A stretch of DNA of 48,865 bases, taken from the NCBI GenBank assembly GCA_000402515.1, contig AQRL01000033.1, positions 1 to 48,865 on the forward strand. Reading direction: 5' to 3'. Of the stretch, positions 3,604 to 48,865 are shown in pieces (the stretch's first letter is position 1; every line of letters begins with the position of its first letter). The stretch is from Nanoarchaeota archaeon SCGC AAA011-G17 (GTDB lineage: Archaea > Nanobdellota > Nanobdellia > SCGC-AAA011-G17). Position numbers and translations under genes: made by a program. Under the pieces are notes generated by a model. It saw nothing but the letters and a program-made list of their open reading frames with translations. It did no database searches and had not been told where the DNA came from.

Positions 3604-4320
3604 ATGGCTAATTTAAAAAAGATAGGGAGTTTTTTAAAAAGAAGTTTATTAATTACTCTCGCAGCAGGAGCAGTATATTATGCAGGCTTAAAACAAAATC
3701 CTTCTTTTCAAGAATTAACACCCAAAGTACAACAGGTATTAATACAAGAACATAATCAACTTGATAATCTATTAAAAAGTGTTTCTGATGATTTTATAAA
3801 GGGTAATTTTAAAGAGGCTATGGCTAAATTCGGAAATTGTGAAAAATTAGTAAATATGTTAAGTAAGATAGACCCTAAATTTAATGAACTAAAGCCAAGA
3901 TTAGCGGAATATCAACAATTCATAAACTTAATAGGGTTGGCTGTAGATTATGTGGATTATCAAAATAAATATATAAATAATTTAAAAATTGATAAAATAT
4001 CATCAGAATCAATTCTTAATATTGTAACTAGAGATATTCATGAAAATTATATCAGTGACCTAATTACATTTAGTCATAATCCAGGTATTAGCCCAGAGAT
4101 AAGAAAACTTGCACTTAGCGCATCCCAACAATTTTATAAAGAAAGACTAGGTATTATGATAGATTTACGTGATCAAATATTAAAACAAAAAAACCGAGTT
4201 TCTAGTCCTAAACAAGTTCAACAGATTGAAGAGGCATTAAGAATTCTTAATCAAATGATTATCCCTAGGGTGGAAGGACAACTTGAAATTATTGAACAAG
4301 CACTTAAAAGATTAAAATAA
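3604..4320 (+). CDS. Hypothetical membrane-anchored protein
   Basis: Long ORF with an N-terminal hydrophobic helix (LLITLAAGAVYYAGL). I recognise no family motif. Confidence 0.5.
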   Translation: MANLKKIGSFLKRSLLITLAAGAVYYAGLKQNPSFQELTPKVQQVLIQEHNQLDNLLKSVSDDFIKGNFKEAMAKFGNCEKLVNMLSKIDPKFNELKPRLAEYQQFINLIGLAVDYVDYQNKYINNLKIDKISSESILNIVTRDIHENYISDLITFSHNPGISPEIRKLALSASQQFYKERLGIMIDLRDQILKQKNRVSSPKQVQQIEEALRILNQMIIPRVEGQLEIIEQALKRLK

Positions 4321-4668
4321 TCTATATTCTTGAATTGAATAATTGTATAACCTCTTTGGAATAATTACATTAACTTGACATATTTTGTAAGTTCCAGATA
4401 TTTTTTATAGTGTGCTCTGAAGTGACATATGTCACCACCTTAACAGCAGTTTAAATTTAGTAATCTTAACGTCTATAATTAATCATGAGCCTTATTTTTA
4501 TAGTGTTTCTAACACATTTTTATGCAATTTAATAAAAAATCTTTATCGTCAATAAAATTCAATAATCAACTAGTGCCAAATGTCATTGCAGAGCACAAGA
4601 TATTTTTTATAGAAAGGTTTATATTGTAGTTTTTGTTTAGTTTACTGATAAATATATGAGGTGCTTTT

Positions 4669-5208
4669 ATGATGAGATATAACAAAAGGGGTGCTTTAGA
4701 ACTTTCTATGAATACTATTATTATAATTGTTATTGGTGTTACCTTATTGACTTTAGGAATAACATGGGTTAGAAACACTATGGGAAGTGTCAGTGGATTG
4801 AGTGACAAGGCTTTTGAAAATGCTGAGAGAGTATTAGCAGGCGGAGAGGACTTTGAGGGGGCAGTAAATGCTCCTAGCCAGTTAAGCTTGAAGAAAGGAG
4901 AGATAAAACAAGCCATATTTAAAGTTAGAAATACTGGGGAAGATACTAATGATGGGTCTGGAACTTTTAGTATATCAATAGGCAGTACCCCTAATCAAGA
5001 ATTAACCACAATAACTCCTACAGATTGTTTGGTTGTAAAGGCAGTTGGATTAAGTAGTAAATCAATTGATATGGGAAAAGCAGGTGAATTTAGCGTTGGA
5101 ATTTCTGCAAAAAACAGCTGTTCAACAGGGGTTGCAGTATTTCCTGTCTCTATACAAGCAAATGGAAAAGAGATTAGTTCAAGACCATTATATATAACCA
5201 TTAAATAG
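4669..5208 (+). CDS. Archaeal type IV pilin-like protein (class III signal peptide)
   Basis: The N-terminus MMRYNKRGALELSMNTIIIIVIGVTLLTLG has a charged head, a G/A cleavage-like site and a hydrophobic helix. A GAGGTG Shine-Dalgarno-like sequence lies upstream. Confidence 0.55.
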   Translation: MMRYNKRGALELSMNTIIIIVIGVTLLTLGITWVRNTMGSVSGLSDKAFENAERVLAGGEDFEGAVNAPSQLSLKKGEIKQAIFKVRNTGEDTNDGSGTFSISIGSTPNQELTTITPTDCLVVKAVGLSSKSIDMGKAGEFSVGISAKNSCSTGVAVFPVSIQANGKEISSRPLYITIK

Positions 5209-25782: not shown

Positions 25783-25814
25783 AAGGGCTTATAGTTAATA
25801 ATTGTTTATAAAGC

Positions 25815-25843
25815 CTGCGCTGGCATGTCAAGTGTGTCATGTG
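25815..25843 (-). promoter_or_regulatory. Second copy of the 29-nt upstream element, abutting the TATA box of the Cas4-like gene
   Basis: The minus strand reads CACATGACACACTTGACATGCCAGCGCAG, then GCTTTATAAA. The ATG at 25782 is ~26 nt from the TATA centre, the same spacing as at 2629-2690. Confidence 0.5.
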
Positions 25844-25845
25844 AA

Positions 25846-27388: not shown

Positions 27389-28414
27389 TTAGAAGAGGTT
27401 AGAAGTACAAATTTTTTTTATAACTTCTTTTCTTAATTTATAACTATCGGCCCATTTTGCATAAGCATCCCAACCTTGAAAAATTTCAAACAGCTTTTCT
27501 TTAGAAACTTCATTTTTCTTGTATCTATCAAAAACAAATAACATTTTTCTAATATTCCTTTTTCTTAATAGCCTATAATGATAAAAATTCCTAAATCCAA
27601 CAAAATCTATTCCTCTAGACAAAGAGCTTATCTTTGACTTTTCAGGATGAAGCTCAATTTTTAATTTCTCTTTCAGAAATTTGTCAATTTCAGATTTCCA
27701 GAATTCAAGCTGTGACTTTGACTTATGAAGAATTACAAAATCATCAACATATCTAATATAATATTTAGCCTTTAGTTTATGTTTTACAAAATAATCTAAT
27801 TCATTAAGGTAAACATTAGCAAAAAATTGTGAAGTTAGATTTCCCAAAGGCATCCCTGTTCCTTTATTTTTAGAATCAAAATTATTTAATATTAATTTGA
27901 TAAGAGAGATTACTTCTTTATCTTTTATTTTTCTTCTGATAATATTTATCAAAATTTCATGAGAAACAGTTTCAAAATAATGCCTAATATCTGCTTTAAG
28001 GCAGAATGCGTTTGATTTAAAATTATTTGTTACTTTTCTTTTAAAATAATCAAATCGTTTAATTGCAAATAAATTTCCTTTCCCTATTCTATTTGCACAT
28101 GAATCATAAATAAATCCCCTGTCAAAAATTGGTTCAATTATTCTTATTAAATCATGATGAACAATTCTATCCCTAAAATCAGACTTGCTTATCTTTCTAG
28201 TTTTAGGATCTCGCAAAATAAAAGTTTTTAGAGGCAATGGGTTGTAGGTATGATTCTTTAATTCTTCAGATAGTTTAAGCAAATTTACTAAAGTATCTTT
28301 TTCAAATTCAATTACATAATATTTACTTGTTTTGTGTTTTCTAGCTTTTCTCCAAGCTAAAAGTAAATTACTAAGATTATAAATTTCCTGATAAAGTTCA
28401 TTATTAGTTTCCAT
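27389..28414 (-). CDS. DGR reverse transcriptase (DGR-1)
   Basis: RT motifs include LGNLTSQ (the DGR-type [I/L]GxxxSQ) and YIRYVDDFVI (YxDD). TR lies 29 nt upstream. The protein is paralogous to 46221-47324. Confidence 0.9.
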   Translation of the reverse strand: METNNELYQEIYNLSNLLLAWRKARKHKTSKYYVIEFEKDTLVNLLKLSEELKNHTYNPLPLKTFILRDPKTRKISKSDFRDRIVHHDLIRIIEPIFDRGFIYDSCANRIGKGNLFAIKRFDYFKRKVTNNFKSNAFCLKADIRHYFETVSHEILINIIRRKIKDKEVISLIKLILNNFDSKNKGTGMPLGNLTSQFFANVYLNELDYFVKHKLKAKYYIRYVDDFVILHKSKSQLEFWKSEIDKFLKEKLKIELHPEKSKISSLSRGIDFVGFRNFYHYRLLRKRNIRKMLFVFDRYKKNEVSKEKLFEIFQGWDAYAKWADSYKLRKEVIKKICTSNLF

Positions 28415-28443
28415 ATTAGTATAAGAAATCCTGACTTTTGGGC

Positions 28444-28524
28444 TATTCCACGAACCCTGTCGTCGTAGTACAAGTCCCTATTGTTACCATCAAGATCAGA
28501 ACTGTTGTCAAGGCTCCTAAACCA
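28444..28524 (-). repeat. DGR-1 template repeat (TR1)
   Basis: 81 nt aligns without gaps to 28857-28937 at an offset of 413. There are 12 mismatches, all where TR has T on the + strand, i.e. A on the coding strand. Confidence 0.9.
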
Positions 28525-28724
28525 CAGGGAACTTATAGCCAGAATACCATCACAAAAGATTAACTCTTGCCACTGAAGCTTCACGAATGTTGCTTCTGTA
28601 TTTCATGACTTAAAATCAAATTAATGATGTACTAGTAAACTGGCATGTAGTCCAACTTATACTTCACTGATAGTATATCTATATAGTCAGGACATAACTT
28701 TAGAAATAATCTATTTTAAAATAA

Positions 28725-29453
28725 TTATTGTCTTAAACCATCTAGTAGAATCTTTTCAATTCCAGTTAGACCTTTTGTTTTTAGAACTTTTAAGATTTGT
28801 TTTGGAGTGTAAACTTCAGAATTTTTTTTCGTGCCTTCGACACTAACACTATCACGTACCCCACGAACCCTGACGACGCAGTACAAGACCCTACTGTTAC
28901 CACCAAGAACAGAACTGTAGACAAGGCACCTAAACCATATTTGTCTTGCAAAGGATTTTTCCTGCATATCTGCTAACAAAACAGCCATTTCTTTGATTCC
29001 TGCTTCTTCTCTTAAGAATTGCCCGTATTTTTCAGCATTTTCGCCAAAAGCATAAACAGTTATTTCATTATCTTTAAATCTGTTTGTAGGGATTTCTTTT
29101 GATTCTAGGTTGACTGAATCTGCTAATCCTTCCTCAATCTGCTCATCAGTTAAATAAAACTCTTGACCTTTTCTATGACAATCTGTAGCTTCTTTTGCAT
29201 TTGCCATTATTGGTGAATTCTTTGTTAAAAATCTACCTTTATTAAGAATATATAAAACCCCTTCTCTTGTCCAGTTTCCATTTCTAGAGACATAGGCATC
29301 TTTACCTTCCTGTATTCTTAATCTTGCATTTTCTTCTAAAGAAATAATTTTATAGCCATCTTTAACTAATACTTTTTTTCCTTCATCAAAGGGTGCCTCT
29401 GCATAAGCTGATTCTATTCCTCTTGGTTTTACATCAATACTAACTTTTACCAT
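28725..29453 (-). CDS. DGR-1 variable (target) protein, 242 aa, no signal peptide
   Basis: VR encodes aa 173-199 (WFRCLVYSSVLGGNSRVLYCVVRVRGV), against the TR-encoded WFRSLDNSSDLDGNNRDLYYDDRVRGI. A 43-aa conserved tail follows VR. Confidence 0.85.
   Translation of the reverse strand: MVKVSIDVKPRGIESAYAEAPFDEGKKVLVKDGYKIISLEENARLRIQEGKDAYVSRNGNWTREGVLYILNKGRFLTKNSPIMANAKEATDCHRKGQEFYLTDEQIEEGLADSVNLESKEIPTNRFKDNEITVYAFGENAEKYGQFLREEAGIKEMAVLLADMQEKSFARQIWFRCLVYSSVLGGNSRVLYCVVRVRGVRDSVSVEGTKKNSEVYTPKQILKVLKTKGLTGIEKILLDGLRQ
28857..28937 (-). repeat. DGR-1 variable repeat (VR1)
   Basis: See TR1. A-site-only divergence, in frame inside the target gene. Confidence 0.9.
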
Positions 29454-39509: not shown

Positions 39510-39911
39510 TTAGACTATTATTGATGCCAATTTTCCTATGCCCGGCCAACGATCTGCTGCCTCTTTTGCAATTGGCCCCTTTAGGATTGTACCTTTAGGA
39601 TTTCCCTTATCATCTTTTAATACTACGACTGCATTATCCTCAAATTTAATCCTCATTCCATCGGGTCTTCTGTACTCTTTTCTTTGTCTTACAATAATTG
39701 CTAACACTCTTTGTTTTTTCATTCCAGGAATACCTTTTTTTACCGAGGCAAATACCAAATCTCCAATACCTGCAGAGGCAAGTCTTCCTTTTACTGTTTT
39801 GGCCCTCTTAACTGAGTAAATCTTGATAACTTTGGCACCCGAATTATCACAGGTTGCTACTCTTGATCCCATAGTCAGTCCTTTAGTTATTCTAGCTTTG
39901 AGTGCTTTCAT
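39510..39911 (-). CDS. rpl14: Ribosomal protein uL14
   Basis: VATCDNSGAKVIKIYSV...GDLVFASVKKG...RIKFEDNAVVVL. Confidence 0.93.
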   Translation of the reverse strand: MKALKARITKGLTMGSRVATCDNSGAKVIKIYSVKRAKTVKGRLASAGIGDLVFASVKKGIPGMKKQRVLAIIVRQRKEYRRPDGMRIKFEDNAVVVLKDDKGNPKGTILKGPIAKEAADRWPGIGKLASIIV

Positions 39912-40221
39912 TTTTTATTACACAAAATGCCTTTGTTTTGCTTAATTTTCTACATTCTTTGATTGTGATTTTGTCGCCTTCTTTTACTTTGATACAGTCG
40001 GGCAAATGCGCCTTTATCTTTGTCTTTCTTTTTTCAGATCTTTCATATTTTGGTAGAGGGAAAAGACGGAACCATTCTACTACTATTGTTCTGTGCATCT
40101 TTGCAGATGTAACTGTCCCTGAAAAGGTTCTTCCTCTAAGTTTTAATGAGCCGTGAAATGGGCAGTTAGGATCATTGCAACTAACTGAAACTTCCTTTGC
40201 TTGTTTTTTGTCTGTTTTCAT
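39892..40221 (-). CDS. rps17: Ribosomal protein uS17
   Basis: CNDPNCPFHGSLKLRGRTFSGTVTSAKMHRTIVVE. Confidence 0.92.
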   Translation of the reverse strand: MKTDKKQAKEVSVSCNDPNCPFHGSLKLRGRTFSGTVTSAKMHRTIVVEWFRLFPLPKYERSEKRKTKIKAHLPDCIKVKEGDKITIKECRKLSKTKAFCVIKNESTQS

Positions 40222-40466
40222 TTTTTTATCCTATCTTCTGGACGGGTTTGTAAAACTTTTCCGTCGATTTCATATATATTATTTTTTATTTTTATTTTGA
40301 ATGTTGATTGTGATTTCATCAGTTTTTTTTGATTGTCTAATATTATCATATTTTTTGTTTCGTCTATTACCTTTCCTTTAATCCCAATCAGTGACTTATT
40401 CTTTGATTTTGTTATCTCTATATCTTTACCTATTAGATTCATACTTACTATGTCTTTTGTTTGCAT
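40218..40466 (-). CDS. rnp1: RNase P protein component 1 (Rpp29/Pop4)
   Basis: LIGKDIEITKSKNKSLIGIKGKVIDETKNMIIL. Conserved position between rpl29/aIF1 and rps17. Confidence 0.85.
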   Translation of the reverse strand: MQTKDIVSMNLIGKDIEITKSKNKSLIGIKGKVIDETKNMIILDNQKKLMKSQSTFKIKIKNNIYEIDGKVLQTRPEDRIKK

Positions 40467-40469
40467 TGT

Positions 40470-40784
40470 CTAAATTGTCGTGACTTTTATTGACCCAGGT
40501 AAAAAACCCATCTTTATCAGCTCTCCCTTAATCTTAGCTGAATGCCTCCCCTGCAACTCAATCTTTCCGCCCTTTACTGTTCCTCCACATGCGAATTTAC
40601 TTTTCAGTTTTTTTGCAAGGTCTTTGATGTTTATTTCCTTCCCATCAATTCCTTCTATCACTGTTGAAATTTTTCCAAATCTCTTTTTTTCCTCTTTGAT
40701 GTAAATTTGTTGAGATTCTTTTGCTATGGTCTCACAGACACATAACTCTTTAGGCAACCCACACGTTGCACATATTTCACTCAT
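40470..40784 (-). CDS. Translation initiation factor aIF1 (SUI1)
   Basis: N-terminal CATCGLPKELCVC, then RFGKISTVIEGID...LAKKLKSKFACGGTVKGGKIELQG. Confidence 0.9.
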   Translation of the reverse strand: MSEICATCGLPKELCVCETIAKESQQIYIKEEKKRFGKISTVIEGIDGKEINIKDLAKKLKSKFACGGTVKGGKIELQGRHSAKIKGELIKMGFLPGSIKVTTI

Positions 40785-40788
40785 TTGT

Positions 40789-40995
40789 TTATTGACTACC
40801 TCCTTTTGGTTTATTTCTTAGGAATGTGTTTATCCTAGCAATTGTTCTTTTGATAATCCTAATTCTTGATGGATTTTCCATATTTGTTCCTGTTGATCTT
40901 TGAGCATTTAATTTAATTAACTCTTTTTTCAAATCTTCATATTTTGAAGTTAGTTCAGCTTCACTTGCTTTTGCTAGATCCTTTTGTTTTTTCAT
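40789..40995 (-). CDS. rpl29: Ribosomal protein uL29
   Basis: ELTSKYEDLKKELIKLNAQRSTG...RIRIIKRTIARINT. Confidence 0.9.
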   Translation of the reverse strand: MKKQKDLAKASEAELTSKYEDLKKELIKLNAQRSTGTNMENPSRIRIIKRTIARINTFLRNKPKGGSQ

Positions 40996-41728
40996 TTTCT
41001 ACCTTTTTCTTTCTGGTTTTTGGTTTAGTCTCTTTCTTTTCTTCAACCTGTTCTTCTTTCTCTTCTTTTACTTCCTCAACAGGTTCTTCTTTAATTTCAG
41101 GGGCTTTTTCAATAATTTTCTGTTCTTCTTTTTTTGGATGAATATCTATTTTATCAGGAAGGTCTACTGTTGGAGGCATTATTTTTACTTTTATTCCTAT
41201 AACTCCTGATTTTGTTATTGCAACTGCCAGCCCCTTAACAACCTTAGAAACTGCAATATCTCCTGATTTCTTCAAATAACCATTCATGAAACGCCATGTT
41301 TTTGCTCTTGAACTTGGTACTTTACCAGAAACTATAATTTCTGCTCCTAAAGCACCTGCATCCATTATTGATTGTAATGTTTTGTAAGCAACTGATTTGA
41401 AATGCTTTGGCCCAAATTTTTCTATGGCATATGCTATTTTTTCTGATATTGACTGGGCATCAAAATATGGATCCTCAATCTCCCCAATTTCTATCTGGGG
41501 GTTTTCCATGCTGAATCTTTTCTTTAAAACAGCAGTTAATCTATTTATGTTCTGACCTTTTCTTCCAACAACTAATCCCGGTCTTGATGTATAGATTGTT
41601 ACTTTATCTCCTAATGGTGTTCTTTGTATTTTTGTGTGACTATATCCTGTTTTTTCAAATTCCTTGGCTATAAATTCCTTTATCTGGAACTCTTTCATTT
41701 TTTGCGCCAAAATTTTTCTTTCTATCAT
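40961..41728 (-). CDS. rps3: Ribosomal protein uS3 with a K/E-rich C-terminal tail
   Basis: KH domain: RTPLGDKVTIYTSRPGLVVGRKGQNINRL... Confidence 0.93.
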   Translation of the reverse strand: MIERKILAQKMKEFQIKEFIAKEFEKTGYSHTKIQRTPLGDKVTIYTSRPGLVVGRKGQNINRLTAVLKKRFSMENPQIEIGEIEDPYFDAQSISEKIAYAIEKFGPKHFKSVAYKTLQSIMDAGALGAEIIVSGKVPSSRAKTWRFMNGYLKKSGDIAVSKVVKGLAVAITKSGVIGIKVKIMPPTVDLPDKIDIHPKKEEQKIIEKAPEIKEEPVEEVKEEKEEQVEEKKETKPKTRKKKVENEKTKGSSKSK

Positions 41729-42180
41729 TTTTGTGTTTTTGTTTCAGTTTTTTTTACTGATTCTTTTGGTTGTATTTTTTTTACTTCCCTGACTTTTATT
41801 TTCAAATGTGTTCTCTTTGCAGTTATTCCTCTGGTTCTTCCATAATGCCATGTTTTCGGACCTTTATTTGCAACTAAGTAAATTATCTTGTATGGCTGAA
41901 CCATTCCTTTTTGTTTTGCATTTGCTTCAACATCTTCTATAATTTCCAAAAAATATTTTGCTGTAGCAATAGGATATCTTCCTGCAGCGATATTCCCCTT
42001 CTTATGGCTGATATCATGATAATAGCGCTTAAATGGAACTGCTACTTTCTTTTCAAGAACCTTGAGCAATAGATTCTTTGCTTTATCTGTATTCTTCCCT
42101 CTAAGAAAAGAGGATATCTCTACTGAATTCTTCATAGAGATAGGTGCAGATTCCTTTGATGCTGTTGCTATATTTTCCAT
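41725..42180 (-). CDS. rpl22: Ribosomal protein uL22
   Basis: APISMKNSVEISSFLRGKNTDKAKNLLLKVLEKKVAVPFKRY. Confidence 0.92.
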   Translation of the reverse strand: MENIATASKESAPISMKNSVEISSFLRGKNTDKAKNLLLKVLEKKVAVPFKRYYHDISHKKGNIAAGRYPIATAKYFLEIIEDVEANAKQKGMVQPYKIIYLVANKGPKTWHYGRTRGITAKRTHLKIKVREVKKIQPKESVKKTETKTQK

Positions 42181-42181
42181 T

Positions 42182-42581
42182 TTACTTTACAGATATTGCT
42201 GAGCTTGATTTTGTAGCACCTATACCTGGTGCTGAGTGCTGAACTCTCTTCCTGGTCATTGTTAATTCCCCTAAACGATGCCCAATCATTTCTTCTGTTA
42301 TTATTGCTGGAACAAACTCCTTACCATTATGTATTGCTATTGTTGCTCCAATCATTTCAGGGATTATAATACAGTCTCTGCAATGTGTTTTTACCGGCTT
42401 TCTGATTCCTTTTTTTTAATGATTTTCTTATTTTTTCAAGTAATTTTTTTTGAATAGGTGTGAATCCCCTCATTAGGGACCTTCTTTCGTGTGATGGAGT
42501 CAATTGTGCAAAGTCTTTTATTGACATATTTTTTAATTCTTCAGTTATTTTTCCCTTGAATTTGAATTGTTTTATTACCAT
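42182..42581 (-). CDS. rps19: Ribosomal protein uS19, frame interrupted by one extra base in an A8 tract
   Basis: ORF 42357-42581 gives the N-terminal half (...[10 protein letters not shown]) and then runs out of frame. Reading T8 at 42410-42417 (+ strand) as 7 yields ...[77 protein letters not shown], with the stop at 42182-42184. Total length is 400 nt, i.e. 399 plus 1. Confidence 0.9.
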
Positions 42582-42582
42582 T

Positions 42583-43317
42583 TTACTTCTTCCTACCTGT
42601 CCTACTTGCCCTAATCATGCCTACATTTCTTCCTGGCGGAGCATTTGCTGGTGCAATAGATGATGCTTTACCCCCAAATGTCGGGCCACCACGCCCTGAA
42701 CCAAATGGATGGTCTGTTGCATTCATTGCTCCACCTGATGTGATTGGATATAATTTGTTTCTTGCTTTCATAGCATAATATCTTTTTCCAGCCTTCAAAA
42801 AAGGCTTGTTTTTTCTTCCTGAGCCGGCGATTATTCCTACTGTCGCCCTGCATTCTGGATGAAATTCTTTTTGTTTTTTTGATGGAAATTTTAATAATAT
42901 TTTATTTCTAACTCTTCCTACAATCATTGCAAATCCCCCAGAAGTTCTAATAAATTTTCCATTATCCCCTGGTGAGGATTCTATATTATAAACTTGAGTA
43001 CCTTCTGGAATACTTTTTAATGGCAAGGTATTACCGGGATATATTGGTGCATTGATCCCGGAAGCGATTTTTTGATTAACTCTTAACCCTTCTGGGGCGA
43101 TAATATAACCTCTTTCTCCTGTTTCATACTCAATTGCTGCCAAAGGAGCTGAATGACCAGGGCAATGCACTAACTCTTTTACTATACCATAAACAACGCC
43201 TTGTTTTTCTTTTTCATCATAAGGCCTATGCTGCGGCTTTCCTTTGTATTTATGACCCGGAGATCTGTATCTTGGACCTCCTCTTCCACGTGCCTGACTT
43301 ACAAGTCTTTTACCCAT
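42583..43317 (-). CDS. rpl2: Ribosomal protein uL2
   Basis: GKRLVSQARGRGGPRYRSPGH...GGAMNATDHPFGSGRG. Confidence 0.94.
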   Translation of the reverse strand: MGKRLVSQARGRGGPRYRSPGHKYKGKPQHRPYDEKEKQGVVYGIVKELVHCPGHSAPLAAIEYETGERGYIIAPEGLRVNQKIASGINAPIYPGNTLPLKSIPEGTQVYNIESSPGDNGKFIRTSGGFAMIVGRVRNKILLKFPSKKQKEFHPECRATVGIIAGSGRKNKPFLKAGKRYYAMKARNKLYPITSGGAMNATDHPFGSGRGGPTFGGKASSIAPANAPPGRNVGMIRASRTGRKK

Positions 43318-43318
43318 T

Positions 43319-43579
43319 TTACATCAATCCTAATTGTGTAGCAACATCAATTGCCGGTGTTTCTGGTGATAACTTAACATAAGCTCTTTTTTCACCTTTT
43401 GGTGTGTTTAAAGTATTTACTTTAACGATTTTTATTTTGAATAATTTTTCTAAAGCCCCCTTTATTTCTGCTTTCTTTGCTTTTTTATCAACTACAAATA
43501 TCAGCTTGTTTTCTGACTCCATTATTCTAACTGCTTTTTCTGTTGATACGGGATATTTGATTATTGAATATTCATTCAT
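43319..43579 (-). CDS. rpl23: Ribosomal protein uL23
   Basis: IIKYPVSTEKAVRIMESENKLIFVVDKKAKKAEIKGALEKLF. Confidence 0.92.
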   Translation of the reverse strand: MNEYSIIKYPVSTEKAVRIMESENKLIFVVDKKAKKAEIKGALEKLFKIKIVKVNTLNTPKGEKRAYVKLSPETPAIDVATQLGLM

Positions 43580-44379
43580 TTGAAGAGCTCCTCTGATTTC
43601 ATTCTTTCAATTGCATCTTTTGTCCAGATAACTAATCTTCCCGGTGTTGTTCCCGGTGCAAGCAACTCTGCATTTAATGAATTTACAGGGACTATCTGAA
43701 TTCCCTGCAGGTTTCTTGATGATTTTTCTAATAAGCATGATTTTGCTATTACAATTAATGGGCCTGTTTTAATCTTGTATTTTCTCCCTCTGCTTTTTCC
43801 CTTACCTGCCCTTACTTTCTTTACTGATATTCTTTTTAATTCTTCTTTTAGCCCTATTTTTTCCAATACTTCCTTTACTTGTTTTGTTTTAGTTAGTGAT
43901 TCAAATTTTGATTCTAAGATTAAAGGAAGAGTAATTGAAAATTTGTGATGCTGCTTTACTAATTCTGGATTTAAAGTAGCAGAAATTGCGGATCTTATTG
44001 CTTTTCTGTTTTCTTTTTTGTTAATTTTTCTTGTAAAATCTTTATCCAGCTGTGGCGGGTGTGCTTTTCTACCTCCAACTGCTCCTGGCATAAATGCTCC
44101 AACCCAACCAAATTGGGTTCCTCTCTTCCATAATGACTTTCTTGGAACTCTTGAAATCCCATGATTGTAAGCTCCTTTGTATTCCCCTCTTCTTCTTGAT
44201 AATTTTGCAGATGATCTCATTCCTGCTCTTGGGAAAGAACCATATGACTGGCGGTTATTTGACTGCAATATTATAACTGCCCTCTTTATCAGATTTTTAT
44301 TCAATGGCTCGGAAAACTGCTTAGGCAATTCTATTGTTTCAGTTTCTTTTCCGGTGATATCTAATATTTTTGCTTTCAT
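43576..44379 (-). CDS. rpl4: Ribosomal protein uL4
   Basis: GSFPRAGMRSSAKLSRRRGEYKGAYNHGISRVPRK...GGRKAHPP. Confidence 0.93.
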   Translation of the reverse strand: MKAKILDITGKETETIELPKQFSEPLNKNLIKRAVIILQSNNRQSYGSFPRAGMRSSAKLSRRRGEYKGAYNHGISRVPRKSLWKRGTQFGWVGAFMPGAVGGRKAHPPQLDKDFTRKINKKENRKAIRSAISATLNPELVKQHHKFSITLPLILESKFESLTKTKQVKEVLEKIGLKEELKRISVKKVRAGKGKSRGRKYKIKTGPLIVIAKSCLLEKSSRNLQGIQIVPVNSLNAELLAPGTTPGRLVIWTKDAIERMKSEELFK

Positions 44380-45323
44380 TTTAGTATAATATTTTTAATT
44401 TCTGGAATAATTTTCAGTGCTTTATTCGGTCTTATTGCTTCAATAAATCTTATTGCTCTTTTCTTTGGTCCAGGAATAGACCCCCTTATAAGAATGTAAT
44501 CATTTTTTACAAACCCGTATTTATGAAATCCCTGTTTTGGATTGATAGTTGAAGGATTAGAATCTATTTTTAATATCAGTTTATTAAAATCAAGGCGTGT
44601 GTGATAACCCATTTTACCTGGATGCGGGACTGCCCATATTGATCTTGAGTGCCATGGACCCAAAGAACCAACCCCTCTTTTTACTTTTTCTGATTTGTGC
44701 TGCCTTAATCTTGTACCAAATCTTTTTGTAGTCCCTTGAAATCCTTTTCCTGTTGATACTGCGTGAACGTCAACTAATTCCCCTTCTTTGAAAACATCTG
44801 ATAATTTTATTTCTTTTTCCAAAAATTGTTTTGCAATTGATAATTGCTCTTCTTTACTTCCTGATAAAGCAAGCTCAAATATTTCCGGCTTTTTCTTTCC
44901 AATAGCTGTAAGTTTTGGCTGGGTATAAACCTGCAACCTTAATTCATCAAATTCTGTTTCTTTTTTTTCTGATTGTTTTTTTGGCAGTTTTATTTTTCTT
45001 GCTAATTCTTTATTTAGATTTTTTACTGGTATTTCAGAAACAACTTTTAAACCATAAGAAGTATTTTTGTAAAAACGAAGAGAAAGAGGCTTTAATGGCG
45101 GACACTCAATAATCGTTACCGGTGTTGAAATATCCATGCCTTTTGTTACTTTTGTTGATGTATCTTTCATTATAACATGAGCCATACCAACTTTGTAACC
45201 TGCAAAGCCTAATAATTTAGCTCCAGCTAATTTGGACCATGCTTTTATTCTCGGTATTTCTCTTTTGGCTCTTTTTCTTGGCCAAAATTGTAAACTCCCA
45301 TGTCTTGGACTATGTCTTTTCAT
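44376..45323 (-). CDS. rpl3: Ribosomal protein uL3, first gene of the superoperon
   Basis: HSPRHGSLQFWPRKRAK...GYKVGMAHV...GKGFQGTTKRFG...GPWHSRSIW. Confidence 0.94.
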   Translation of the reverse strand: MKRHSPRHGSLQFWPRKRAKREIPRIKAWSKLAGAKLLGFAGYKVGMAHVIMKDTSTKVTKGMDISTPVTIIECPPLKPLSLRFYKNTSYGLKVVSEIPVKNLNKELARKIKLPKKQSEKKETEFDELRLQVYTQPKLTAIGKKKPEIFELALSGSKEEQLSIAKQFLEKEIKLSDVFKEGELVDVHAVSTGKGFQGTTKRFGTRLRQHKSEKVKRGVGSLGPWHSRSIWAVPHPGKMGYHTRLDFNKLILKIDSNPSTINPKQGFHKYGFVKNDYILIRGSIPGPKKRAIRFIEAIRPNKALKIIPEIKNIILK

Positions 45324-45335
45324 TCTGTTCCTATT

Positions 45336-45384
45336 ATCGCATCCTTTTCAGGGTGTGCGATTGTTTTTGTGACTTTCCCGTCAC
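45336..45384 (-). promoter_or_regulatory. Structured 5' leader of the rpl3 operon (two hairpins)
   Basis: ATCGCA...TGCGAT (45336-45361, with inner CCT/AGG) and GTGAC-TTTCCC-GTCAC (45369-45384) lie 13-60 nt upstream of the rpl3 ATG. The only clear TATA, TTATATAA, is ~190 nt upstream. Confidence 0.35.
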
Positions 45385-45554
45385 TGTACTCCTAGAATCA
45401 GGCGAAATAATTTTTTTGCTTTCAAAGCAACGCCTTATCTTTGGATAAGAGTGATTGTTTTGAGAAATTGAGTGTTTAAAAAGGTTTTGGATTATAAAAA
45501 TAAAAACAAATAATTTATATAATACTAAGAATTAGTAATCTATGAGGTGATTTC

Positions 45555-45752
45555 ATGGCCAAAAAAAGCGCTTTAGACTGGATTGCTATGGTTCTATTGA
45601 TTATTGGTGGTCTAAATTGGGGATTAGTCGGGTTATTTAATTACAACCTTGTAGAATCTCTTTTTGGGTCTATACCCATAATCGGGACTATAGTATATGT
45701 ATTAGTAGGATTGTCTGCACTTTATATGATATATACCGCAGCAAAGATGTAA
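45555..45752 (+). CDS. DUF378 family small membrane protein
   Basis: LDWIAMVLLIIGGLNWGLVGLFNYNLVESLFG is the DUF378 signature. Confidence 0.7.
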   Translation: MAKKSALDWIAMVLLIIGGLNWGLVGLFNYNLVESLFGSIPIIGTIVYVLVGLSALYMIYTAAKM

Positions 45753-45761
45753 TTCTTTTTT

Positions 45762-46193
45762 TTATTTCATTTTTTTTGTAATATCAATATTCTTCCCACA
45801 CTTAGAGCACTGAAAACGAACTGCTTCTACTGTTTCTTTTTTTCCTGTTTCTTCATTAAGTCTTTGTACTTTTTTTCTTTTGAAAGATGCCTGCAATTCA
45901 TCTGAATGCTGGCAGTGCGGACAAATATACTCAATATTAATATTCAATGTATCCTCATATTCCCCACAGTCAACTGTATATTTACATTCTGGACAGATGT
46001 ATTCTTTTGCCCTTATCTTTGGTCTGCCTGTTTTTTCATCTTTTGGCTTCCCCATAATTCCTTTTCCGCATTTTGGACATTTGCCTCTGAAGACCCAAGA
46101 TTTTATCTTTCCATTTTCAAATAACCTATTAGTAAAATAGATACATTCATCCATTGATTTTGGCTGTTGAAGAGTCATTCTAATCTTATTCAA
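45762..46193 (-). CDS. Zinc-ribbon protein (four CxxC pairs), directly downstream of the DGR-2 RT
   Basis: CPKCGKG, CPECKY, CPHCQH and CSKCGK. It starts 27 nt after the RT stop on the same strand. Confidence 0.5.
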   Translation of the reverse strand: MNKIRMTLQQPKSMDECIYFTNRLFENGKIKSWVFRGKCPKCGKGIMGKPKDEKTGRPKIRAKEYICPECKYTVDCGEYEDTLNINIEYICPHCQHSDELQASFKRKKVQRLNEETGKKETVEAVRFQCSKCGKNIDITKKMK

Positions 46194-46220
46194 ATTTGTT
46201 GTTTATAAAAATTTCTAATA

Positions 46221-47324
46221 TTAAATTTTTGTTTCTCTTAATAATCTATTCACTTCTATTGATGAAATCTGATTAGAAAACATATACTCAAAATCTTTAG
46301 TGAACTGCTTTCTTAATTTATAAGTATCTGCATGCTTAGCATAAGCAATCCATCCTTCAAAACTTGCATAAATTTTATCATAATCAATCTTCCTTTCATT
46401 TAATTTGTATTTTGTTAATTTATTTCTCATCTTTTTTATATTTCTTTTATTTAATAACTTATGATAATAAAATACCCTGAAGCCCAATAAACTAATTCCT
46501 TTGCTTAATAAAATTATTTTGGATTTATCTGGATGCAATTCTAAGTTTATTGTTTTTAAAAAGGCACCAATCTTATTTTTATAATCAAATAATACCCCAT
46601 AATTATTATGAATTATCACAAAATCATCTACATATCTAATATAATATTTTGCCTTTAATTTATGTTTTACAAAATAGTCTAATTCATTAAGATAAACATT
46701 AGCAAAGAACTGGGAAGTTAGATTTCCCAATGGCATTCCTATCCCTTTATTTTTGGAATTAAAATTATCTAGTATTAATTTAATAAGCAATATTATTTTT
46801 TCATCTTTTATTTTTCTTTTAATAATCTCAATTAAAACTTTGTGAAAAACAGTATCAAAATAGTGCTTAATATCTGCCTTTAAAATATAAGCTTCCCTTG
46901 TATTATTCTTAGTAACTTTCCTTTTAAAATAATCAAATCTTTCCAATGCCTTAAATGCCCCCTTAAATTTTCTATTTGCATACGAATCAAAGATAAATAT
47001 TTTTTCAAATATTGGTTCAATAATATTACACAAAACATGGTGAATAATTCTGTCTTTAAAATCAGACTTGCTTATTTTTCTGGTCTTTGGATCCCTAAGG
47101 ATGAAGGTTTCCAAAGGTTTTGGCCTATAAGAATGAAACATAATTTCTGACCTTAATTGAAGCAGATTTTCCTTAAGATTCTTCTCAAACTCAACAACAT
47201 AATCTTTTTTTGTCTTATTTTTTCTTGCTTTTTTATATGCTAGTTTAATATTTTCATAACTACATAGAGAAATCCATAAATTAGTGTAAGTATGCATTTG
47301 ATTATTAAATGCCTTGGCAAACAC
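46221..47324 (-). CDS. DGR reverse transcriptase (DGR-2)
   Basis: GMPLGNLTSQFFANVYLNELDYFVKHKLKAKYYIRYVDDFVI is identical to the DGR-1 RT over this stretch. By alignment to RT-1 the likely true start is the ATG at 47297, which leaves a 32-nt TR-RT spacer. Confidence 0.9.
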   Translation of the reverse strand: MFAKAFNNQMHTYTNLWISLCSYENIKLAYKKARKNKTKKDYVVEFEKNLKENLLQLRSEIMFHSYRPKPLETFILRDPKTRKISKSDFKDRIIHHVLCNIIEPIFEKIFIFDSYANRKFKGAFKALERFDYFKRKVTKNNTREAYILKADIKHYFDTVFHKVLIEIIKRKIKDEKIILLIKLILDNFNSKNKGIGMPLGNLTSQFFANVYLNELDYFVKHKLKAKYYIRYVDDFVIIHNNYGVLFDYKNKIGAFLKTINLELHPDKSKIILLSKGISLLGFRVFYYHKLLNKRNIKKMRNKLTKYKLNERKIDYDKIYASFEGWIAYAKHADTYKLRKQFTKDFEYMFSNQISSIEVNRLLRETKI

Positions 47325-47329
47325 AGGAT

Positions 47330-47416
47330 TATTCCAACAAAACGAGCATTGTTGTTGATGTTGTTGTTACCATTAAGACCATTGTTGCAGTTGTCGCCAA
47401 CGAACAGCAAACGCCC
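47330..47416 (-). repeat. DGR-2 template repeat (TR2)
   Basis: 87 nt aligns without gaps to 47748-47834 at an offset of 418. There are 10 mismatches, all at TR T on the + strand (coding-strand A). TR encodes the AAY-rich GRLLFVGDNCNNGLNGNNNINNNARFVGI. Confidence 0.92.
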
Positions 47417-47606
47417 GCTATATAGCCTGCTTATCCTTAATTGCAATGCTGTTTCATCTGTTCAATATTTACTAAGTGTCACAGCTGTATTTTATAACCA
47501 TTAAATGGCCATGATAAACAGGCGTGTAGCCCTGAGATATCTAACTATCACAAATCAAGTTAAATAATACCAAGACAAAGTAAAAAAGAGAAAGAAGTTT
47601 AAAAAT

Positions 47607-48374
47607 TTATTTGTATAATGCTTTTATTTTATTTTCATATTCTTTTCTAGTTGCTTTTGGAACAAAATTTTTTGAAACCTTCAAAATTTGCTCTATAGTC
47701 GGTGCTGAAATTTTTTGCGCAGTGCCTTCGGCACTAGCACTACCACGTACCCCAACAAAACGAGCATAGTTGCCGATGCCGTAGTTACCAATAAGACCAT
47801 TGTTGCAGTAGTCGCCAACGAACAGCAAACGCCCTAATGGCTCATCTTTTAAATCATCACAATGCCAGATTCCTATATTATTTCCATAAACCTGTTTAAA
47901 TTTTTCAAGATATCTTTGGGCTCTTTCCTCTCCGCCAATAAAAGGGATAGTTTGGGGATGCTCCAATGCTCTTTCAACTGGAATTACTCCTGAACTTGAA
48001 CTTTTAAGCTTATCATAATCAATAACAAAAACATTCTTATTATCCCCTAAATCCAATAATCTCTGAAATTCATCTACCGGCATAACTCCTGCACCGTTTA
48101 TTCTCTCTGCATTTCTTATATTTTCAGGATTAGAAAGATAATTATCAACATGGACATATACAACTACTGGGTTTCCCTGCTTGGTTCTTCCTGTTGCCCT
48201 TATGCTTGGTGCAGTAAGCCAGTTGCTTAATAAGCTTGAACCTTTAGTTGCTAAAATTTTTGCGTCTATCAGTTCAGGCATGAATAAAGCATGACCGTAT
48301 TTCTGACAGCTTTCTAAGGCTGTAGCCATATCACTATTATAAAACTCTTTTGCTTGCTTTCTGTTTATTTCCAT
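47607..48374 (-). CDS. DGR-2 variable (target) protein, 255 aa, no signal peptide
   Basis: VR encodes aa 181-209 (GRLLFVGDYCNNGLIGNYGIGNYARFVGV). The 46-aa tail is conserved with target 1 (...EGT...P..ILKV.K...). Confidence 0.85.
   Translation of the reverse strand: MEINRKQAKEFYNSDMATALESCQKYGHALFMPELIDAKILATKGSSLLSNWLTAPSIRATGRTKQGNPVVVYVHVDNYLSNPENIRNAERINGAGVMPVDEFQRLLDLGDNKNVFVIDYDKLKSSSSGVIPVERALEHPQTIPFIGGEERAQRYLEKFKQVYGNNIGIWHCDDLKDEPLGRLLFVGDYCNNGLIGNYGIGNYARFVGVRGSASAEGTAQKISAPTIEQILKVSKNFVPKATRKEYENKIKALYK
47748..47834 (-). repeat. DGR-2 variable repeat (VR2)
   Basis: See TR2. Confidence 0.92.
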
Positions 48375-48452
48375 TTTTAACTCCTTTTAATTATAAAATA
48401 GCCTTATTTTATTATTTATAAACCTTTCTATTTGTAACTACTTAATAATAGT

Positions 48453-48686
48453 CTAATCTTCTGTAGAATTATCGGTTTCGTTTGTTGGCAACCATTGTTT
48501 TTTGGTTGTATATGAGGTTACATCTTTTATGTTTACAAAGAGATTACCAACCCATGAGAACATTCCTTTTACAAAACTAGTCTTTTGGTCTCTTGTGTCA
48601 AGCCCTGTATCTTTCTGTATAAAGTAAGCTCCTATTAAAAGTACAATTATTGCCCCAATGATTATTTTTTTAAACATCTCTGACAA
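48453..48686 (-). CDS. Small membrane-anchored hypothetical protein
   Basis: ORF with an N-terminal TM helix (IIIGAIIVLLIGAYFI). Confidence 0.4.
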   Translation of the reverse strand: MSEMFKKIIIGAIIVLLIGAYFIQKDTGLDTRDQKTSFVKGMFSWVGNLFVNIKDVTSYTTKKQWLPTNETDNSTED

Positions 48687-48721
48687 GAAATTCTCTTCAA
48701 ATATATAACTTTTGGTTATAA

Positions 48722-48865
48722 GTAACCGTTTAGCTACTCCAGAACAATAATCAAAAAATAGTAGTTCTTATTACTAATTTTTGGGGGTTGGAGTGAGGAA
48801 CGAATGGAAACCCCCAATGAATTGAAAGATTTGAGCAGAGAAGAATTAATAGAAATAATTCTTGA
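48722..48865 (+). mobile_element. Left end of an IS66-family-like insertion sequence, truncated by the window edge
   Basis: It begins GTAACCGTTTAGCT, the inverted repeat of 197-210. A GGAGTGAGG Shine-Dalgarno-like sequence and the ATG at 48804 open a transposase frame. Confidence 0.6.
48804..48865 (+). CDS. Transposase N-terminal fragment, 3'-partial
   Basis: METPNELKDLSREELIEIIL... runs open to the window end. It has a Leu-zipper-like N-terminus as in IS66-type TnpC. Confidence 0.45.
   Translation, partial: METPNELKDLSREELIEIIL

Follow-up and report, generated by a model that had tools for sequence, protein, structure and literature searches.

A diversity-generating retroelement of Nanoarchaeota and the RT-16 RNA adjoining its template repeat

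The DGR-2 cassette, its variable protein and its natural variation

The sequence considered in this work (referred to below as the window) is a stretch of 48,865 nucleotides (nt) from contig AQRL01000033.1 of Nanoarchaeota archaeon SCGC AAA011-G17, and its positions 46221 to 48374 are occupied by a diversity-generating retroelement (DGR) that we will refer to as DGR-2. The DGRs are recognized by a template repeat (TR) and a variable region (VR) that differ only at the adenines of the template, and by a reverse transcriptase (RT) of the DGR clade with a YxDD motif and an SQ-containing motif 4. Further criteria are the placement of the VR on a scaffold that tolerates variation (a C-type lectin or Ig fold), a difference between the initiation of mutagenic homing (IMH) site and its counterpart in the template (IMH*), and a hairpin or a cruciform located downstream of the VR. 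The accessory protein Avd is common in these elements but not universal. The elements of DGR-2 all lie on the minus strand and its main parts are as follows:

48374..47607, minus strand: target gene avpA, an open reading frame (ORF) encoding 255 amino acids (aa)
47834..47752, minus strand: 83-nt core of the variable region VR2, with 8 mismatches to the TR, each at a TR adenine
47416..47334, minus strand: 83-nt core of the template repeat TR2, with 22 adenines and 12 adenine-containing codons (10 AAY, GAC and ATC)
47297..46221, minus strand: DGR-type RT, 358 aa counted from the ATG at 47297

A second, paralogous cassette (DGR-1) is found in the same window and, as had been noted in an earlier sequence-only reading of this DNA, its parts follow the same order. 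That reading had also described DGR-2 as a complete DGR with adenine-only substitutions and an AAY-rich template, and the target gene with its VR, the TR and the RT are indeed all present and intact.

The TR and VR form an ungapped direct repeat of 83 nt with 90% identity, as seen both with a repeat finder and in an independent alignment of our own. All eight mismatches in this core are located at TR adenines, and the non-A positions are identical without exception (61/61), in agreement with the perfect non-A conservation that had been claimed. The sequence-only reading had counted 10 mismatches at TR adenines over 87 nt (extending to 47330 in the TR and 47748 in the VR). This count is exact (10/10; with 25 A in this stretch, the hypergeometric P for all 10 mismatches falling on A is 8e-7); however, the two 3'-most of them belong to a fixed boundary and not to mutagenesis, as described below. 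The translations given for the TR (GDNCNNGLNGNNNINNNARF) and the VR (GDYCNNGLIGNYGIGNYARF) were also correct. The count of variable AAY codons that it had proposed gives 10 of the 12, and by our recount the TR2 repertoire amounts to 9.2e12 proteins, encoded by 4^22 = 1.8e13 DNA sequences. The VR encodes residues ~181-207 of the 255, and it is thus in the 3' part of the gene but internal, not at the C-terminus of the protein. A scan of the whole window revealed no additional VRs of either TR2 or TR1, the template of DGR-1.

The RT is matched by the Pfam domain RVT_1 (E = 2e-21), its YVDD codons are located at 46634..46623, and its translation contains the sequence GNLTSQFFAN, which includes the SQ-containing motif 4. 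Judged from these motifs and from the matches given below, the protein appears to belong to the DGR-type RTs and has kept its catalytic motif. Its start was earlier placed at the GTG codon at 47324, but it is most likely the ATG at 47297 (MHTYTNLW), since this position is favoured by the paralogue and by the N-terminus of the family (MKTYKNLY). The RTs of DGR-2 and DGR-1 are 62% identical. Among solved structures, the best match for this RT, with an E value of 9e-44, is chain 8ub7_A of 328 aa, named "Reverse transcriptase", and a group II intron RT is matched with an E value of 1.7e-20. We take 8ub7 to be the bRT of phage BPP-1. The PDB codes 8UB7 and 8UB8 are absent from the text of bioRxiv 10.1101/2023.10.23.563531. 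The annotated phages matched by the RT carry DGRs, and they include Vibrio phage VHML, Bordetella phages such as BIP-1, and ANMV-1, for which the identity is 39% across 97% of the query length. NCBIfam contains no DGR model, and the best match of the RT therein, a group II RT, was under the cut-off (150 vs 300 bits). Relatives of this RT in GTDB species genomes number at least 453, and the comparisons described below cover 80 of their loci, nearly all of which are labelled as DPANN archaea.

The following features mark the 3' boundaries of the two repeats:

47753..47748, minus strand: IMH-like GGGGTA, directly at the 3' end of the VR
47735..47721, minus strand: hairpin AGTGCC-GAA-GGCACT, 3' of the VR, within the coding sequence
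47720..47710, minus strand: A-run GCGCAAAAAAT, after the hairpin
47335..47330, minus strand: IMH*-like GGAATA, at the 3' boundary of the TR

The ~37 nt located 3' of the VR, which contain the IMH, the hairpin and the A-run, are nearly identical in DNA sequence in DGR-1, despite the fact that the targets of the two cassettes are only 27% identical and in their C-terminal parts only. Most of the related loci listed likewise have a GC-rich stem closed by a GNA loop, in general with an A-run after it, and the DNA fold of this region in DGR-2 has an energy of -7.7 kcal/mol (z = -2.4). The change from GGAATA in the TR to GGGGTA in the VR (AA to GG, at 47333/47332) is identical in DGR-1, in most of the related loci listed and in both of the VR alleles described below. 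As the first of these two positions is the silent third position of a Gly codon, selection at the protein level cannot account for the constant G in the VR. The two 3'-most mismatches of the 87-nt alignment are a fixed IMH/IMH* boundary difference lying outside the transferred tract, and the diversified core therefore holds 8 substitutions. At the sequence level, DGR-2 thus has distinct IMH and IMH* sites and a hairpin 3' of its VR, all of putative function.

The target protein is identical to AvpA of PDB entry 5IOO in 255/255 residues, including all of the variable ones (phmmer E = 1.4e-172). An AlphaFold model of the target, built on 90 homologues, has a predicted local distance difference test (pLDDT) score of 92.8, and a Foldseek search with this model retrieved 5ioo_A at 100% identity with a template modelling (TM) score of 0.97 and a root-mean-square deviation of 1.0. 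Its fold, by virtue of the identity to crystallised AvpA, is that of a C-type lectin (PMC5006420). No Pfam or NCBIfam match was found for the target family, and it was identified only through structure and PDB searches; its 194 homologues are unnamed proteins of Nano-, Woese- and Pacearchaeota.

In Handa et al. (2016; PMC5006420), AvpA is the variable protein of "OTU1, Contig 3 DGR2" from DUSEL4 Nanoarchaeota, an element that Paul et al. (2015; PMC4372165) were the first to report. These papers describe several DGRs per genome with two of them on the AvpA contig (PMC4372165, PMC5006420), a TR/VR pair with IMH and IMH* sites and a hairpin with a trinucleotide loop in the coding sequence (PMC4372165, Fig. 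3), an internal VR followed by a 46-residue extension (PMC5006420, PMC4372165), and 12 variable codons, 10 of them AAY, that provide ~1e13 variants of a protein with the C-type lectin fold (PMC5006420). The sites, the hairpin, the extension, the codons and the repertoire agree with our recount, and together with the identity of the target, VR included, and a second paralogous DGR on the contig, they indicate that DGR-2 is the published element itself without any difference.

A natural relative of AvpA provides evidence of recent diversification. This protein (P0001) is 96% identical to AvpA, with nearly all of the differences within the VR, and it is encoded by two contigs, L001 (ENA ERZ27245848) and L002 (Logan SRR6946090), which share one VR. 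No exact copy of the AvpA of the window is on record in the contig collection. Over ~9 kb (48721..39757 of the window) L001/L002 are 99.4% identical to the window, and of the 51 differences found in this region, 15 are inside 46 nt of the VR (47812..47767). Every one of these (15/15) is at a TR adenine, and TR2 itself is 100% identical. When the two VR alleles are combined, 15/22 of the core adenine positions have changed, or 17/25 over 87 nt if the two fixed boundary positions are included. With a divergence of only ~0.4% elsewhere and no change in the TR or the flanks, the 15 adenine-site differences in the VR require at least one homing event after the split of these lineages. Recent or ongoing homing, which the sequence-only reading had inferred from the repeats, is thus supported, and by the evidence of this natural variation DGR-2 appears to have been recently active.

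With the anatomy of the cassette, the adenine-only divergence of TR and VR, the natural turnover of the VR between near-identical genomes and the identity of AvpA all directly observed, we hold it to be nearly certain that DGR-2 is a real, intact and recently active DGR and the same element as "OTU1 contig 3 DGR2" of the DUSEL4 Nanoarchaeota. As a DGR it is not new, having already been published.

A conserved RNA between the target gene and the template

Between the stop codon of avpA and the TR there are 190 nt (47606 to 47417), and the RT ORF is directly downstream of the TR. The sequence-only reading had given the length of this interval correctly but had regarded it as a spacer. It is, however, not passive, as it contains a conserved structured RNA that matches the RT-16 family. 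An Rfam scan of the window gave two matches only, both to RF03019 (RT-16), for which the gathering score is 50 bits. The relevant features are:

47575..47417, minus strand: RT-16 RNA (Rfam RF03019), cmscan 87.2 bits, E = 1.9e-12, model positions 1-158 of 158
28692..28530, minus strand: RT-16 of DGR-1, 71.5 bits, full model
47576..47568, minus strand: RT-16 strand S5, GTCTTGGTA
47534..47527, minus strand: RT-16 strand S3+CUA, CAGGGCTA
47529..47521, minus strand: start of the conserved RT-16 core, CTACACGCC
47335..47311, minus strand: 3' tail of the TR, with the IMH*-like GGAATA followed by T1 and T2
47331..47324, minus strand: T1, TAATCCTG, complementary to S3+CUA (RT-16 element nnGGGCUA)
47319..47311, minus strand: T2, TGCCAAGGC, complementary to S5 (the first RT-16 bases)
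47608..47597, minus strand: BRE/TATA-like (transcription factor B recognition element and TATA box) sequence AAATTTTTAAAC, overlapping the avpA stop codon; a presumed promoter

An RT-16 RNA above the gathering score is present in 73/80 of the related loci. Pairs of TR and VR were detected in these loci by an adenine-tolerant diagonal scan, which replaced a fixed identity window that was too strict and missed most of them. Such pairs were found in most of the 80 loci, and no pair was found in about one quarter, some of which are truncated. The position of the RNA relative to the TR is fixed: in 57/60 RT-16/TR pairs its 3' end falls between -8 and +11 nt from the point at which TR homology begins, with a median of 0 nt. 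In 11/73 loci RT-16 is on the strand opposite to the RT, and wherever a pair was found in these loci, the target and the TR are on the RT-16 strand, so that the RT gene and the RNA unit can be separated from each other.

Two other observations concern the repeats of the related loci. In five of them (L047, L050, L059, L066, and L073) one TR matches two VRs in two neighbouring target genes, which indicates that multi-target cassettes occur in this RT clade. In L019, L026, L035, L063, and L066 the TR contains an insertion of ~20-30 nt, missing from the VR, just before GGAATA (e.g. ...CTCGAAATCT-AAAAAAGACGAGA...), and this insertion could form a local hairpin in the 3' end of the template.

In Weinberg et al. 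(2017; PMC5737381), RT-1 to RT-19 are described as motifs near RT genes, of which only RT-10 is tied to a DGR (the Sp region of BPP-1), with some speculation on DGR roles for other RT motifs. A whole-word literature search for "RT-16" retrieved nothing on the RT-16 RNA among the matches listed, and the passages of PMC5006420 and PMC4372165 dealing with these DGRs contain no description of it.

The sequence located 3' of the TR is also conserved across the loci, and it consists of GGAAUA followed by the two segments T1 and T2. These segments covary with strands of the RT-16 RNA. Examples are GUCCCAGC with GCUGGGAC, GCCUUGAC with GUCAAGGC, and GUCCUCGC with GCGAGGA, and in some loci the pairing of CUA with UAG is replaced by that of CCA with UGG. 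For each pair of strands the mean duplex energy for cognate pairs (both strands from the same locus) was compared with that for non-cognate pairs:

S5:T2: cognate -15.2, non-cognate -7.0 kcal/mol; permutation p <= 2e-4
S3+CUA:T1: cognate -9.6, non-cognate -5.9 kcal/mol; permutation p <= 2e-4
S5:S3 (base of the Rfam hairpin P1): cognate -7.6, non-cognate -5.0 kcal/mol; permutation p <= 2e-4
T1:T2 (tail hairpin): cognate -5.36, non-cognate -5.60 kcal/mol; permutation p = 0.83

As the non-cognate pairs were optimised in the same manner as the cognate ones, the comparison is free of fitting bias. These p-values are indicative only, the loci being related to one another, and the S5 strands listed include many distinct sequences. 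A tail hairpin formed by T1 and T2 was rejected, since it shows no cognate-specific signal. The S5:T2 helix is present in the minimum free energy folds of both RNAs of the window (DGR-1 and DGR-2). Together with the RT-16 match and its fixed position beside the TR, the covariation between RT-16 and the tail is directly observed, and it argues that the 5' end of the RNA pairs with its short 3' tail in helices that enclose the RT-16 core and the template. To our knowledge, this long-range pairing has not been described previously.

The boundaries of a possible transcript can also be recognized. Across 46 aligned loci, a conserved AAAnnTTTTTAAA/TATA block is located ~24-36 nt upstream of S5, the first helix strand of RT-16, and it has the form of an A-rich stretch followed by TTTTTAAA or TTTTTATA. 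Additionally, an oligo-T is found within a few nt of T2 in most of the listed loci that lack a downstream RT gene. The block and the oligo-T fit an archaeal promoter and terminator that would bound an RNA of ~300 nt.

A possible role of the RNA and competing explanations

Based upon these features, the following mechanism can be envisaged. A promoter at the avpA stop codon would drive the synthesis of an RNA consisting of the RT-16 fold (~160 nt), the 83-nt TR and a tail of ~25 nt, and in the DGR-2 locus this template RNA would run on into the RT coding sequence. The RT would then copy the TR into cDNA, with misincorporation opposite the 22 template adenines, and the cDNA would replace the VR of avpA. 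The direction of the transfer and its 3' limit would be set by the target IMH (GGGGTA, hairpin and A-run) as against the template IMH* (GGAATA). This would rewrite 12 codons for residues on the ligand-binding face of a protein with the C-type lectin fold, and ~9e12 proteins would be possible. By analogy with Bordetella phage BPP-1, we infer the promoter, the priming and synthesis of the cDNA and the chemistry of homing in this scheme, as well as a role of the structure formed by RT-16 and the tail in placing the template on the RT and delimiting cDNA synthesis in the absence of Avd.

More specifically, we lean towards the view, with confidence that is only modest, that in the Avd-less DGRs of the DPANN archaea the RT-16 RNA located 5' of the TR serves as a scaffold that presents the template to the RT, in a permuted version of the BPP-1 layout. 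The pairing of T1 and T2 onto S3+CUA and S5, respectively, would close the core and the template into one domain, with the GGAAUA, at which the cDNA would start, placed beside the conserved CUACACGCC core, and a switch in folding or activity may be provided by the alternative S5:S3 hairpin.

Several points weigh against this interpretation and against that of DGR-2 as an active element. No homologue of Avd was found, though Avd is essential in BPP-1, and the archaeal mechanism may differ from the BPP-1 model. The turnover of the VR is deduced from two alleles only, that of the window and that of L001/L002, and the case as a whole is built on sequence comparison. Furthermore, the energies of the whole-RNA folds are like those of shuffled sequences (z = -1.4 and -1.7), and the RNA architecture therefore rests on covariation. 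Lastly, the base of P1 (S5:S3) is also cognate-specific, and the long-range helices may take its place, alternate with it, or meet it in a junction.

A different role for RT-16 and its tail, which we consider improbable, is that they constitute a regulatory 5' leader that acts only on translation or transcription of the RT and takes no part in a templating ribonucleoprotein. The location of the RNA directly upstream of the RT start codon, both here and in 62/73 loci, and the fact that T2 ends ~5-25 nt before the ATG, are in accordance with such a leader. However, in the 11/73 loci where RT-16 is opposite to the RT strand, it is found either upstream or downstream of the RT, and the listed examples of this kind retain S5, S3, T1, and T2 and end in an oligo-T. 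The RNA also follows the TR boundary within a few nt, and not the start of the RT.

It is also conceivable that DGR-2 is a fossil, i.e. a formerly active cassette in which the diversification of avpA has stopped and the TR/VR pattern is a relic. That just two VR alleles were seen, that the evidence at hand is one of sequence, and that Avd was not detected are all compatible with this possibility. We regard it as very unlikely, as the RT ORF is intact and has kept its catalytic motifs, the non-A positions of TR and VR are identical (61/61), and the VR differs at 15 adenine sites in genomes which elsewhere have diverged by 0.4%, with the TR and flanks unchanged.

It is also very unlikely that the interval between the target and the RT represents no structured RNA but codes for an accessory protein of small size resembling Avd. 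In Fig. 3 of PMC4372165, ORFs between target and RT are marked as Avd-like based upon their size and isoelectric point, and ORFs of this kind can be obtained mechanically in the window at 47446..47240 (68 aa, TTG start) and, for DGR-1, at 28584..28357 (75 aa, GTG start). However, these ORFs consist mostly of the TR in the frame of the VR, have non-ATG starts and are without a match to any Pfam family, even at E <= 5, and no Avd-like Pfam match was detected in the small ORFs in or beside either cassette. In contrast, the region upstream of the TR fits a covariance model (87 and 71 bits in the two cassettes; 73/80 loci), and its conserved features are base-paired strands that covary. We consider these ORFs to be non-coding; a remote or unrecognisable Avd may exist. 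A retron and a group II intron were also considered and rejected, as the cassette has a TR/VR pair and an RT that is nearer to DGR RTs, and the Rfam scan showed no match to an intron RNA domain.

Neighbouring features and comparison with known systems

The DGR-1 cassette has the same layout as DGR-2, and its parts are:

29453-27389, minus strand: DGR-1 cassette
29453..28725, minus strand: target gene
28937..28861, minus strand: variable region VR1
28524..28448, minus strand: template repeat TR1
28414..27389, minus strand: RT

Directly downstream of the DGR-1 RT there is an ORF of 486 aa (27306-25846, minus strand) that has zinc-ribbon motifs of the CxxC type in its interior and a weak similarity, with an E value of 2.7e-7 that does not reach the cut-off, to PriS, the catalytic subunit of archaeal primase. 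The DGR-2 RT is followed directly by an ORF of 143 aa (46193..45762, minus strand) with several CxxC zinc-ribbon motifs and sub-threshold zinc-ribbon matches, which is kept in L001 and L002 and has no counterpart beside DGR-1. This ORF and a DUF378 gene (45555..45752, plus strand) intervene between DGR-2 and rpl3, and the cassette is therefore, contrary to what had been stated, not immediately upstream of rpl3.

Comparison with L001/L002 also reveals some differences outside of the cassette. In the window, rps19 (42182-42581, minus strand) is broken into two ORFs (74 aa and 57 aa) by a single additional A in a homopolymer (within 42400-42430), which is A8 in the window and A7 in L001/L002, where the gene is intact at 132 aa; the additional A probably reflects an error of assembly or sequencing on the side of the window. 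In L001/L002 an extra T near 40507 alters the C-terminus of SUI1. The similarity to these contigs ends at 48721, which is 144 nt short of the end of the window (48722-48865), and just past this point L001 contains a gene for an IS605-family OrfB/TnpB protein (3743-5030, 397 aa) that is also present in L002. The end of the window may coincide with the boundary of a mobile element. In addition, an inverted repeat of 46 nt, 83% complementary, is found at 2627-2672 and 25800-25845 with its arms 23 kb apart (TTCACTTGACACACTTGACATGTCAGCGC...), and a string akin to it, CATGTCAAGTG, is located beside the TnpB gene in L001. These arms may be the ends of an IS200/IS605-type element.

DGR-2 is the type example of the archaeal DGRs, with a target of solved structure, and as a DGR the locus adds nothing new; its value in this regard is that of a positive control for recognizing a DGR from raw sequence. 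The architecture of RT-16 and the tail is possibly the only new point, and it provides a modest lead. The biochemistry of DGRs is known from a single phage system, for which Avd and a 3' spacer RNA are needed, and the study of a widespread archaeal clade in which Avd is undetected and a 5' RNA is conserved would reveal what in the mechanism is universal. If the proposed role is true, RT-16 would gain a function, the RNA would supplant the "Avd-like ORFs" of 2015, and these elements would represent a compact two-component system (an RT and an RNA of ~300 nt), from which a smaller RT-plus-RNA module for targeted mutagenesis tools might follow.

In relation to the Rfam family RF03019, the spacers of DGR-2 and DGR-1 both match the full model above the gathering score. 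The present work differs in that RT-16 is placed precisely, with its 3' end at the 5' boundary of the TR, and in that alternative partners for the base of the first RT-16 hairpin are recognized downstream of the TR, outside the Rfam model.

The DGR of the ANMV-1 virus (KP703175) resembles DGR-2 in its RT, which ranks with the closest of the listed matches from annotated phages or viruses (39% identity), and PMC4372165 places both RTs in one archaeal DGR RT clade. It differs in being viral, in having an Mtd-like tail-fibre target, and in that an Avd ORF is annotated for it in the published figure.

In BPP-1 (mtd, TR, avd, bRT), cDNA synthesis depends on Avd, on the 20 nt that precede the TR and on a spacer of 140 nt that follows it, and a duplex between upstream and downstream sequences, the "cPRT Stop," brackets the template (bioRxiv 10.1101/2023.10.23.563531). 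Five archaeal genomes were inspected in the same study over 40 nt upstream of the TR only, and hence the S5 and S3 strands were out of its reach. DGR-2 shares with BPP-1 the adenine-specific transfer from TR to VR, the AAY-rich template, the C-type lectin target, the IMH/IMH* sites, the hairpin 3' of the VR and a bracketing duplex around the template. In contrast to BPP-1, where Avd is present, none was detected in DGR-2, and its VR is internal to the gene, with the hairpin in coding sequence. The large structured RNA of BPP-1 (Sp, ~140 nt) is 3' of the TR, whereas that of DGR-2 (RT-16, ~160 nt) is 5' of it. Lastly, ~20 nt suffice upstream of the TR in BPP-1, whereas in DGR-2 it is the conserved 3' tail that is short, only ~25-35 nt, and the upstream bracketing strands are located ~110-160 nt before the TR.

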